Notes under the pieces: model-generated
What the model was told of the DNA's origin: nothing
The model's input: the letters and a program-made list of their open reading frames with translations, nothing else
Databases searched by the model: none
Program-made: the position numbers and the translations under genes
From: Rhodanobacteraceae bacterium
GTDB lineage: Bacteria; Pseudomonadota; Gammaproteobacteria; Xanthomonadales; Rhodanobacteraceae
Direction of reading: 5' to 3'
Assembly (NCBI GenBank): GCA_027019085.1
Contig: JALUXG010000011.1
Span: forward strand, 1,944 to 65,943
Length of the DNA stretch: 64,000 bases
Shown: piece after piece, positions 26,319 to 33,486 of the stretch
How positions within the stretch are numbered: position 1 is the first letter of the stretch
Layout of the letters: every line of letters begins with the position of its first letter

Positions 26319-26432
26319 GGTGGCGGCCCTGCCAGCCACACCCCGGCACCCGAATCCTCCGCTACCGTTGCTTCCTTCCGGACCTGGCGGGGTTTGCGAA
26401 GTATCGTCGCGGGGGGACCGACAGGGCCACCA
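26319..26432 (-). ncRNA. ffs: signal recognition particle RNA (4.5S, small bacterial type)
   Basis: The minus strand reads GGTGGCCCTGTCGG...CCAGGTCCGGAAGGAAGCAAC...GGCTGGCAGGGCCGCCACC. The GGTCCGGAAGGAAGCA core matches the E. coli 4.5S domain IV and the termini pair. The ends are approximate. Confidence 0.8.
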
Positions 26433-26538: not shown

Positions 26539-26918
26539 TGGCGGAGAGGGAGGGATGACTCCGCGCTGCGCGCTGCGCCCCTTCGGGGCCGTCGCTGCGC
26601 GACGTTCCGATGCACAAAGCGCATCGGTCGAACCCGTCCATCTGATCCCGAGGGTTCGACTCCCTCCCTTCGATTCCGATCCAGACTCCCGGGTTTTCAC
26701 ATCCCTCGAAAACCACGGCTTGCTTGTATGGCGGAGAGGGAGGGATGACTCCGCGCTGCGCGCTGCGCCCCTTCGGGGCCGTCGCTGCGCGACGTTCCGA
26801 TGCACAAAGCGCATCGGTCGAACCCGTCCATCTGATCCCGAGGGTTCGACTCCCTCCCTTCGATTCCGATCCAGACTCCCGGGTTTTCACATCCCTCGAA
26901 AACCACGGCTTGCTTGTA
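26539..26918 (-). repeat. two identical 190-bp tandem units abutting tRNA-Ser(CGA), each carrying an 18-nt copy of the tRNA 3' end
   Basis: Units 26539-26728 and 26729-26918 are identical by eye. Each starts on the plus strand with TGGCGGAGAGGGAGGGAT, which is the reverse complement of the tRNA end ATCCCTCCCTCTCCGCCA. Confidence 0.9.
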
Positions 26919-27009
26919 TGGCGGAGAGGGAGGGATTCGAACCCTCGATACGGGAGACCCGTATACCGGATTTCGAATCCGGCGCATTCGACCACTCTGC
27001 CACCTCTCC
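26919..27009 (-). tRNA. tRNA-Ser(CGA)
   Basis: Class II tRNA. GGAGAGG acceptor, anticodon arm CCGGA-TTCGAAA-TCCGG, long variable arm, T-arm GAGGG-TTCGAAT-CCCTC, encoded CCA. Confidence 0.93.
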
Positions 27010-27067: not shown

Positions 27068-27097
27068 ATGATACGTCGCAGCGTGCCGCGCGGGCAA
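27068..27097 (-). promoter_or_regulatory. candidate sigma70 promoter for tRNA-Ser(CGA)
   Basis: Minus strand TTGCCC-N18-TATCAT, about 60 nt upstream of the tRNA 5' end. Confidence 0.4.
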
Positions 27098-31777: not shown

Positions 31778-33121
31778 ATGCAAACCGAAAGTCACACCCC
31801 ATCCACAACTACCTGTCGAGCGACCCACGACCCCCTGCGCATCCTGCGCGCGGTGTTGGCCGGGCCGGGGCGCTTCGTCCGCCCGTGGTACCTGGCCTAC
31901 CTGCTGCTGGGCGTGGTCACCGCCGGCCTGGTGCCGGTGCTGTTCCCGCTGATCGTGTCCGACCGCGCGCACAGCGTGGCCGCCGTGGCCTACGTCATGG
32001 GCGTGTACAACCTCGGTCTGCTGACTTCGCCGCTGTGGGGGCTGCTGGCCGAGCGCTGGCGTCTTTACCGCAGCCTGTTCTTCCTGGCTTTCGTGCTGGG
32101 TGCCGCGGCACTGGCAATCTTTCCCCTGATGCAGCACATGCCTGGCTGGCTGGCCGCTGCCTTCGTGCTCGGCGCGGGCTCGGCCGGCGCCGGCACCCTG
32201 GCCTCGCTGTTCGTCGTCGATTTCGCTCCACAGGAGGAATGGGAACCTCGCATCGGCATGCTGCAGGGCTTCAATGGCACCGGCCAGGTCGTAGGCCTGC
32301 TGCTGGCCGGCCTGTTCGCACACGGGCAGTTCGATGCAGGACTGTGGATATGCGCGATCCTGCTGGCCGTGGCCGTCGGCGTGGGCGGCATCGGCCTGCC
32401 CGGCACGCACGCCGGCACTTCCGTTGCCGATCGCGTACACCGTTTGCTGGACGTGCGCGCATTGGCCGCGTTCCCACGCATCAACCTGCTTTCGGGCCCG
32501 GCATGGCATTTCAGCCATTTCAATCTGCACGGCCTGCGCCATGCCGGTGGGATGTTCGGCACGCCGTTCGGACGTTTCCTGCTGTCCTGGTTCATGCTGG
32601 CGCTGGGCGTGGCCGGGTTCTTCACCTACTTCCCGATCCTGCTGGCCCGGGGCTACGACCTGAACACGCACGCCTCCTCGCTGCTGTACGCCGCCGGCGC
32701 CGGCGTCGGCATCGCGCTGTTCGTGCTGGCCAGCCGCGCCTGCGCACGCTACGGTTCGGCGCGGGTGTACCAGTGGGGCCTTGCCGTGCGCATCGTCGGC
32801 TTCGTGCTGCTGCTGGCCTCTACCGCACTCCCGGCGCACCTGCGGTTGAGCGCATCGGCCGTCGGGTTCCTGCTCATCGTCATGGCCTGGCCGGTGCTCA
32901 GCGTCGCCGGAACCGGCCTGGCCGCGCACCTTGCGACCTTCAGCGAAGGGGCTGCCATGGGCCTGTTCAACGCCAGCCTGGCCCTGGCCACCGTGATCGG
33001 CGCCTTCGCCAGCGGCCCCCTGATCGGCGCCTTCGGCTACCCCGCCATCCTGTGGATGGGGGTGGCAGGGATCGGACTGGCCAGCGTGCTGGGGGCGGGA
33101 CTGGGCAAGAAGCGCGATTGA
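31778..33121 (+). CDS. MFS transporter
   Basis: 447 aa with about 12 hydrophobic helices. GGGAGGA Shine-Dalgarno upstream. Confidence 0.85.
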   Translation: MQTESHTPSTTTCRATHDPLRILRAVLAGPGRFVRPWYLAYLLLGVVTAGLVPVLFPLIVSDRAHSVAAVAYVMGVYNLGLLTSPLWGLLAERWRLYRSLFFLAFVLGAAALAIFPLMQHMPGWLAAAFVLGAGSAGAGTLASLFVVDFAPQEEWEPRIGMLQGFNGTGQVVGLLLAGLFAHGQFDAGLWICAILLAVAVGVGGIGLPGTHAGTSVADRVHRLLDVRALAAFPRINLLSGPAWHFSHFNLHGLRHAGGMFGTPFGRFLLSWFMLALGVAGFFTYFPILLARGYDLNTHASSLLYAAGAGVGIALFVLASRACARYGSARVYQWGLAVRIVGFVLLLASTALPAHLRLSASAVGFLLIVMAWPVLSVAGTGLAAHLATFSEGAAMGLFNASLALATVIGAFASGPLIGAFGYPAILWMGVAGIGLASVLGAGLGKKRD

Positions 33122-33393
33122 TTTCGAGGGTTCGCATCCCTCCCCCCCCCCGAAACGAAAACGCCACAGCAAGCTGCAGCGTTCGGATGCCTGGGCATCA
33201 GGGTATGGCGGAGAGGGAGGGATGATTCGGCGCCATGCGCCTCACCCCTGCGGGGCCGTCGCTGCGCGACGTTCCGATGCGCAGGGCGCATCGGTCGAAC
33301 CTCATGTCTTGATTTCGAGGGTTCGCACCCCTCCCCCCGAAAACGAAAACGCCACAGCAAGCTGCAGCGTTCGGATGCCTGGGCATCAGGGTA
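33118..33393 (-). repeat. tRNA-Ser(GGA)-linked copy of the same repeat family: spacer / 18-nt tRNA-end copy / 85-nt core / spacer
   Basis: 33118-33205 and 33309-33393 are duplicates that differ by C10 vs C6 and A3 vs A4 runs. 33206-33223 is TGGCGGAGAGGGAGGGAT. The core 33224-33308 is homologous to 26557-26640. Confidence 0.9.
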
Positions 33394-33486
33394 TGGCGGA
33401 GAGGGAGGGATTCGAACCCTCGATACGGGTATAAGCCGTATACACACTTTCCAGGCGTGCTCCTTAAGCCACTCGGACACCTCTCC
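33394..33486 (-). tRNA. tRNA-Ser(GGA)
   Basis: GGAGAGG acceptor, anticodon arm CACGC-CTGGAAA-GTGTG, long variable arm. The 3' half is identical to that of tRNA-Ser(CGA), with encoded CCA. Confidence 0.93.

Follow-up and report, generated by a model that had tools for sequence, protein, structure and literature searches.

Repeats distal to tyrT in Escherichia coli were reportedly described by Egan and Landy in 1978, and a 171-nt rtT RNA is said to be released there from the tRNA transcript. The role of this RNA has been tied only loosely to the response to amino-acid starvation, and it has been without an established function since the 1970s. In the passages of PMC7542023 and PMC3318445 that refer to Bosl and Kersten (1991), RtT (gene rttR) is given as 178-bp repeats distal to tyrT-tyrV. 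Here we describe two tandem 190-nt units that follow a tRNA-Ser(CGA) gene in a Rhodanobacteraceae bacterium (GenBank assembly GCA_027019085.1, contig JALUXG010000011.1, positions 1,944 to 65,943). This stretch of 64 kb is called the window, and coordinates refer to it unless another locus is named. The array very probably consists of two tandem copies of the RtT-type tRNA-trailer RNA module (Rfam RF00391), an array that expands and contracts by recombination between its direct repeats. The locus is best read as an ordinary addition to the known RtT family and not as the scar of an integrated mobile element.

The array behind tRNA-Ser(CGA)

Unit 1 begins at the first base after the CCA of tRNA-Ser(CGA) and is 100% identical to unit 2 (Table 1), and Tandem Repeats Finder reports a period of 190 with 2.1 copies, 100% matches and 0 indels over 26539-26936. 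All features of the array and its tRNA lie on the minus strand, and in tRNA sense the order is tRNA-Ser(CGA), 172 nt followed by ATCCCTCCCTCTCCGCCA, the same 190 nt again, unrelated flank, and the signal recognition particle (SRP) RNA gene. The 18-mer spans the tRNA from T-loop position 59 to the CCA end at position 76. Chance origin of a perfect 380-bp duplication is impossible. An earlier sequence-only reading of this stretch had described two identical 190-bp units with the 18-nt end of the tRNA, and ARAGORN and Tandem Repeats Finder showed its coordinates and description to be exact; it did not recognise the RtT family RF00391.

Each of the two units matches RF00391 over model positions 1-130 of 130 with 46.9 bits, where the Rfam gathering score is 45. 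A scan of the whole window with Rfam gave three RtT matches, each behind a tRNA-Ser gene. The match outside the array (33206-33349, 60.8 bits, likewise over model positions 1-130) lies in a full unit behind tRNA-Ser(GGA), 6.5 kb from the CGA array. The partial second unit at this paralogous locus ends at the stop codon of a convergent plus-strand gene. The leader of the GGA locus holds a terminator-like hairpin with a T run, which places the RtT core downstream of an apparent tRNA terminator.

In a blastn search of 5,426 complete E. coli genomes with the unit, regions annotated as "RtT sRNA" (small RNA) were matched in 3,628; the alignments are weak but collinear (79-86% identity over the 3' 49-69 nt, E-values 3e-4 to 1e-3). 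At the one E. coli tyrT locus that was examined, tRNA-Tyr, an RtT unit and a further tRNA-Tyr are followed by six RtT units of 178-179 bp, an arrangement like that of the window. Each of the E. coli units ends in the last 19 nt of tRNA-Tyr, and strain GF66.2 carries seven of them.

The window array shares with E. coli RtT its position directly behind a tRNA on the same strand, its tandem units of ~180-190 bp that vary in number (between strains in E. coli), the unit end formed by the last 18-19 nt of the tRNA including CCA, and an antisense T-arm segment near the 5' side. The units of both organisms are collinear, with the antisense T-arm followed by GGTTCGAC, three to four GC-rich hairpins, GAGTNATCC and the tail; the hairpin series GGTTCGAC ... 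CCCGAAGGG ... GAGTNATCC, after which the tRNA tail follows, is recognisably homologous, in line with the covariance model match above the gathering score. In contrast to E. coli RtT, which is associated with the tRNA-Tyr of the tyrT operon, the host tRNAs in the window are Ser(CGA) and Ser(GGA), and both the tail and the antisense arm are re-specified accordingly. The window array also differs in its high-GC Rhodanobacteraceae host, in its placement between a tRNA and ffs and in having no apparent Tpr-like open reading frame (ORF), and it is known here from DNA sequence. The 3' external transcribed spacer of glyW-cysT-leuZ, reportedly an sRNA sponge, is comparable as a stable RNA that is said to arise from a tRNA 3' trailer as a by-product of tRNA processing. 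Trailers of that type differ in being single-copy and in having no sequence or structure similarity to RtT, and they are not known to carry a copy of the tRNA 3' end or an antisense arm.

Unit structure and related elements behind other tRNAs

The unit is built from four parts, namely a fast-evolving leader of 60 nt with a local hairpin (26882-26904 in unit 1), an antisense arm, a core of four hairpins that starts with GGTTCGAC, and the exact 18-nt copy of the tRNA tail. The antisense arm GGGAGGGAGTCGAACCCTC is the reverse complement, with one mismatch, of tRNA positions ~49-68, which comprise the T arm and the start of the acceptor 3' strand. In the minimum free energy (MFE) fold, which has a z-score of -3.98, GTCGAACCC of the arm pairs with the sense T-arm half GGGTTCGAC on one side and the arm pairs with the tail on the other, while the core hairpins emerge from the junction. 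Only CCA is left unpaired in this fold, as a tRNA-like 3' end. As modelled, the unit resembles the 3' third of a tRNA into which ~85 nt have been inserted at T-loop positions 58/59 and which is held together by its own complement. In an in-silico co-fold of the tRNA with one unit (26729-27009), the arm pairs with the T arm and acceptor 3' strand of the tRNA over ~24 bp and replaces the cloverleaf, and such a fold would give the unit anti-tRNA potential within the precursor. The last hairpin region of each unit holds a tandemly duplicated 7-mer, GCGCAGC (26752-26768 and 26562-26578). A protein-coding reading of the unit was rejected as unlikely, as 190 is not a multiple of 3, a 7-nt indel is polymorphic and loop lengths differ among relatives.

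Motifs common to the E. coli and window units were combined into the search pattern GGTTCGAC N30-50 CCCGNAGGG N12-25 GARTNATCC; GGTTCGAC is fixed by this pattern and its constancy in the survey is by design. In a one-genome-per-species collection the pattern matched at least 120 stretches. Nearly all of the matches listed come from Gammaproteobacteria (including Enterobacteriaceae, Marinobacter, Alteromonadaceae, Ectothiorhodospiraceae, Steroidobacteraceae, Lysobacteraceae and Rhodanobacteraceae), and one comes from Rhodocyclaceae. The listed matches, the syntenic loci described below, matches in viral contigs and the window together make up a survey set of 141 elements from more than 120 genomes, 118 of which have a tRNA gene on the same strand within 700 nt upstream. 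These tRNAs are Ser (36), Tyr (24), Gln (24), Arg (17), Thr (5), Lys (4), Glu (2), Val (2), Asn (2), Pro (1) and Met (1), and the conserved core is found behind at least ten tRNA types.

The tail follows the identity of the upstream tRNA. Among the 118 elements, 76% share an identity of at least 14 nt with their own tRNA in the 18 nt that start at ATCC (median run 18), whereas none reaches 14 nt against tRNAs of other types (0%, median run 4); the lone Met-linked element falls below this value. The antisense arm copies the T loop, T stem and acceptor strand of the cognate tRNA over up to 25 nt, and co-varies with the host tRNA. Arm and tail can form a helix of 9 bp or more in 43% of elements compared with 4.5% for mismatched-tail controls, on a crude measure of contiguous pairing in which any mismatch terminates the helix.

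Covariation was assessed in an alignment of 31 elements from 10 tRNA types. The four core hairpins are paired in 89.1% of cells, compared with 64.5% in column shuffles (0 of 500 as high) and 31-41% with slid partners; 112 cells are changed on both sides against 32 in shuffles, and the covariation score is 0.591 against 0.161. The closing helix was missed by RNAalifold on the MAFFT alignment because placement of the 5' arms varies there, and it was then tested explicitly. Jointly, the two closing helices are paired in 81.5% of cells compared with 73.1% in shuffles (0 of 500 as high), and 8 of the 12 arm-tail pairs have changed on both sides.

The curated model itself is found behind several tRNAs, with matches above threshold behind tRNA-Pro in Citrobacter (100.7 bits), tRNA-Tyr in Luteimonas and tRNA-Val in a gammaproteobacterial metagenome-assembled genome (MAG). 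In Serratia sp. NPDC078593 (locus L036, 5450-7332), nine RF00391 matches of 51.6-89.1 bits are interleaved with five tRNA genes including tRNA-Lys, which shows that RtT units can separate tRNA genes in the same way as the tyrT-tyrV spacer of E. coli. The matches linked to Pro, Val and Lys thus indicate that the curated family is not specific to tRNA-Tyr and that this link is historical. A literature search returned no paper describing a tRNA-independent RtT pattern, the term RtT being dominated by papers on Rett syndrome and round-trip time.

Table 1. Features of the two tRNA-Ser loci and their surroundings in the window.
Feature	Position	Strand	Basis
tRNA-Ser(CGA)	26919-27009	-	ARAGORN; Rfam tRNA model, 63.5 bits
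18-mer ATCCCTCCCTCTCCGCCA, original in tRNA-Ser(CGA)	26919-26936	-	sequence
RtT-type unit 1, nearer the tRNA, 190 nt	26729-26918	-	Tandem Repeats Finder; RF00391 match 26729-26872
RtT-type unit 2, distal, 190 nt	26539-26728	-	Tandem Repeats Finder; RF00391 match 26539-26682
5' antisense arm GGGAGGGAGTCGAACCCTC	26840-26858 (unit 1), 26650-26668 (unit 2)	-	sequence, MFE fold, cross-family co-variation
Sense T-arm half GGGTTCGAC	26817-26825 (unit 1), 26627-26635 (unit 2)	-	T stem 5' strand and T loop
Internal hairpins (CGATGCGC/GCATCG, CGTCGC/GCGACG, GCCCC/GGGGC, GCGC/GCGC)	26752-26816 (unit 1), 26562-26626 (unit 2)	-	RNAalifold, pair counts
18-nt tRNA-tail copies ending the units	26729-26746 (unit 1), 26539-26556 (unit 2)	-	exact copies
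SRP (4.5S) RNA gene, ffs, downstream of the array	26327-26423	-	Rfam RF00169, 73.7 bits
Sigma-70-like promoter candidate (TTGCCC, 18-nt spacer, TATCAT)	27068-27097	-	consensus scan
tRNA-Ser(GGA)	33394-33486	-	ARAGORN; 18-nt 3' end same as tRNA-Ser(CGA)
Paralogous RtT locus (full 188-nt unit; partial second unit 33118-33205)	33118-33393	-	sequence, blastn

Gain and loss of units in relatives

DnaX places the organism in Rhodanobacteraceae and is 73-84% identical to that of Oleiagrimonas. The window was compared with eight syntenic loci (L002-L009), and the gene order DUF6165, tRNA-Ser(CGA), ffs, dnaX is conserved in the four closest. Behind tRNA-Ser(CGA) there is no unit in L002 and L005, one in L004 (O. 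soli), two in the window and three in L003, where neighbouring units are identical or show only a few base differences. Behind tRNA-Ser(GGA) the window has ~1.45 units, L003 ~3.5 and L002 a single degenerate one, and Frateuria soli carries one divergent unit with compensatory changes. Within the Oleiagrimonas pair, the sequence that follows the RtT tail in L004 can be aligned, from its first base onward, with the sequence that follows the tRNA in L005, and therefore the indel is exactly one 192-bp unit bounded by an 18-nt repeat. Three head-to-tail ORFs (70, 63 and 63 aa) without a Pfam hit lie on the strand opposite the GGA RtT array of L003 (5240-5828) and are almost certainly spurious.

A comparison between genera gives 85-88% identity for the RtT part at the orthologous locus and 78-83% when the two Ser loci are set against each other; the corresponding values are 81-83% for dnaX DNA and 97% for SRP RNA. 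The ~45 nt between the tRNA and the Rfam match are 51% identical between genera, which is the random level. These locus-wise identities and the unit counts indicate that the elements are old at each locus, that the RtT part is conserved and that change occurs by loss or expansion of whole units. As the comparison with relatives shows, whole units are gained and lost through the 18-nt tails and 190-bp repeats, so that the two identical units of the window reflect recent unequal recombination or slippage, or ongoing homogenisation.

Several ideas of the sequence-only reading can be placed against these results. Unequal recombination, which it had listed among its explanations, agrees with relatives that carry 0, 1, 2 or 3 units and with an Oleiagrimonas pair that differs by one unit. 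Selection for a repeated RNA product, also on its list, gains support from the Rfam RtT match, from the covarying hairpins and from conservation of the RtT part but not of the leader. It had proposed counting units in relatives, where the number indeed varies (0, 0, 1 and 3, compared with two in the window), and had allowed for a private local duplication of little significance, a view that does not survive the presence of homologous units in relatives and behind other tRNAs. Its view that nothing could be encoded in so small a unit is correct for protein and fails for RNA, as the unit encodes a structured RNA.

Alternative readings and meaning

Several points weigh against the assignment of the locus as a two-unit RtT array. 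The CGA units exceed the Rfam gathering score by only 1.9 bits, and the homologous units of L004, L002 and L006 score below the gathering threshold. No cellular role is assigned to RtT even in E. coli. The count of exactly two for the source genome is less than certain, as it rests on short-read contigs, and the same concern underlies the possibility that the second unit is an assembly artefact or that the true number is not two. The window probably comes from a short-read metagenome assembly, its contig has a length of 87 kb, matching contigs come only from metagenome runs, and a perfect 190-bp repeat exceeds the typical length of a short read. Evidence on the array in nature comes from Logan contigs of two such runs, X1 and X2, which are themselves short-read contigs that break at the repeat and whose depths are indicative only. 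In the independent metagenome X2, a 220-nt contig identical to 26717-26936 spans the unit-to-unit junction and has a depth of 30.5, about twice the 14.3-14.8 of exact flank contigs. Run X1 contains a 42-nt unit-to-unit junction contig (depth 32.5), and since such a junction requires at least two tandem units, the tandem form exists in nature. The unit contig of X1, however, has a depth of 64 compared with 54-67 for the flanks, which is not twofold, and it carries a single GCGCAGC copy, a 7-nt deletion relative to the window. This depth and deletion mean that copy number may differ within or between populations. Given the junction contigs in both runs, the doubled depth in X2, three units at the same site in L003 and up to seven in E. 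coli strains, we regard an artefactual second unit, or a source-genome number other than two, as improbable.

Expression of the array can be outlined by analogy. The units would be co-transcribed with tRNA-Ser(CGA) from the tRNA promoter, and, in the way reported from E. coli, the enzymes of tRNA 3' maturation would cut at each tRNA-like tail and release unit-length RNAs. In the folded model, each RNA would be closed by its antisense arm through GGGTTCGAC and the tail, leaving a tRNA-like CCA end. The candidate promoter lies ~60 nt upstream of tRNA-Ser(CGA) (1 site compared with 0.1 expected in shuffles) and could serve this function, and a terminator scan gave no terminator-like site between tRNA-Ser(CGA) and the SRP RNA gene. 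The 3' 98 nt of the RtT element of a close relative are present in saline-spring metatranscriptome contigs at a depth of 32-40. To the points already raised against our assignment it must be added that transcription, processing and RNA stability at this locus are argued from E. coli and from this metatranscriptome contig, which could include contaminating DNA, and that many related loci, including the GGA locus of the window, have a terminator-like hairpin in the leader before the RtT core. At those loci co-transcription would therefore need read-through. A clear intrinsic terminator (GC hairpin and T run) was also seen between tRNA and RtT core in L123, L103 and L052; such terminators question simple co-transcription, or imply regulated read-through.

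Insertion of an element into a tRNA gene classically leaves direct repeats of the tRNA 3' end that run from T loop to CCA, and the sequence-only reading had accordingly considered the 18-mers as attachment (att) cores of a tyrosine integrase, with a non-autonomous integrative mini-element in between. The 172 nt would then be a remnant or satellite of an integrative element. In the att duplications of P4- and lambda-type integrases such repeats likewise flank an insert behind an intact tRNA, but the window segment has 172 nt rather than kilobases, is tandem, has no integrase and is a conserved RNA found behind many tRNAs, with an interior whose covarying pairs are homologous to E. coli RtT. The gene tables of the window and of L002-L009 list no Pfam integrase. 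The viral contig L133 (IMGVR_UViG_2521172693_000001) gives the idea some substance, as RtT-like units lie there between phage structural genes and a P4-type integrase gene; when this integrase served as a tblastn query, no hit was significant in the window (lowest E-value 0.07), in the eight syntenic loci or in 120 further loci that carry an element. Among 50,697 phage records none matched the unit, and the one match among 72,556 plasmid records is probably chromosomal tyrT DNA. Together with the occurrence of the module behind at least ten tRNAs, these results leave an integrative origin with hardly any probability. Similarly implausible is the view that the units are decaying partial duplicates of tRNA-Ser, a functionless and private pseudogene debris. 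They do hold sense copies of tRNA positions ~50-58 and 59-76 and an antisense T-arm copy; however, ARAGORN and Rfam find no tRNA model match inside them, homologues of the core stand behind Tyr, Gln, Arg, Lys and other tRNAs in many families, the RtT part far exceeds the adjoining leader in conservation across genera, and covariation is strong in the core hairpins and closing helices.

The motif pattern matched four viral contigs only. In L133 (9940-12453), the 3' portion of a tRNA-Ser is followed by ~4.5 RtT-like units, each with a terminator-like hairpin, and the array stands between terminase, capsid and portal genes on one side and the integrase gene (Arm-DNA-bind_3 and Phage_integrase) on the other. 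This arrangement looks like prophage or island integration beside an RtT array, and suggests that RtT tails could act as extra att-like sites. Repetitive extragenic palindromic (REP) sequences, bacterial interspersed mosaic elements (BIMEs) and miniature inverted-repeat transposable elements (MITEs) resemble the units in being small, structured and non-coding, with an inverted-repeat character (arm and tail) and variable copy number. RtT differs in always standing at a tRNA 3' end and in having arms that follow the host tRNA instead of conserved transposase-binding ends, and no scattered copy detached from a tRNA was seen in the window. A MITE or REP reading was rejected because the arms change with the host tRNA and all three Rfam matches in the window follow tRNA-Ser.

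A further possibility, which overlaps with the RtT assignment, is that the RtT module moves, or recently moved, as a small non-autonomous element directed at the tRNA T loop or 3' end, with tail and antisense arm re-templated at each new tRNA. One core does occur behind at least ten tRNA types with a matched tail and arm each time. After removal of arm and tail, mean core identity hardly differs within (0.709) and between (0.692) tRNA types, and the closest cross-type cores, L035 behind tRNA-Thr(TGT) and L064 behind tRNA-Arg(CCG) in a Steroidobacteraceae MAG, are 94% identical although their tails, each matching its own tRNA, are wholly different. In a tree built from 85 cores the tRNA type changes at least 37 times; this is below all of 200 label shuffles (46-59), so that tRNA type is weakly clustered on a tree that is built on ~85 nt, poorly resolved and indicative only. 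These data are indicative of tail and arm being re-specified fast relative to core divergence, which could proceed by concerted evolution together with pairing selection or by templated copying. Concerted evolution could make the tails track the tRNA, and selection on pairing could do so for the antisense arm. The filled and empty sites of the Oleiagrimonas pair, with one unit flanked by an 18-nt direct repeat, resemble a target duplication, but the empty site is accounted for just as well by exact removal of the unit through recombination between direct repeats. In the clade of the window, units group by locus across genera with the identities given above, which argues for ancient vertical inheritance accompanied by losses, the divergence of the leaders is that of neutral intergenic sequence, and no enzyme, circle or junction form was seen. 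On balance we consider mobility unlikely. The same low probability attaches to its extension to the family, in which canonical RtT, including the tyrT repeats of E. coli, would be a tRNA-tail-templated module spreading without an enzyme of its own, its ~85-nt core having moved repeatedly. If this were true, each move would bring a sense 18-nt tail together with an arm antisense to the T arm and acceptor strand of the new tRNA, the tRNA-Ser arrays of the window would descend from such moves, and the RNA would be predicted to use its antisense arm to act on the cognate tRNA or pre-tRNA.

Returning to the RtT assignment, the correct label for the locus is an RtT-type RNA array, neither an integration scar nor junk. 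The label "RtT sRNA, processed from tyrT transcript", which the NCBI pipeline uses in E. coli, would mislead behind tRNA-Ser. The match of tail and antisense arm to the host tRNA ties the function or the spread of RtT to the 3' third of the tRNA, and the tRNA-independent, tail-matched nature of canonical RtT is more interesting than the locus itself.

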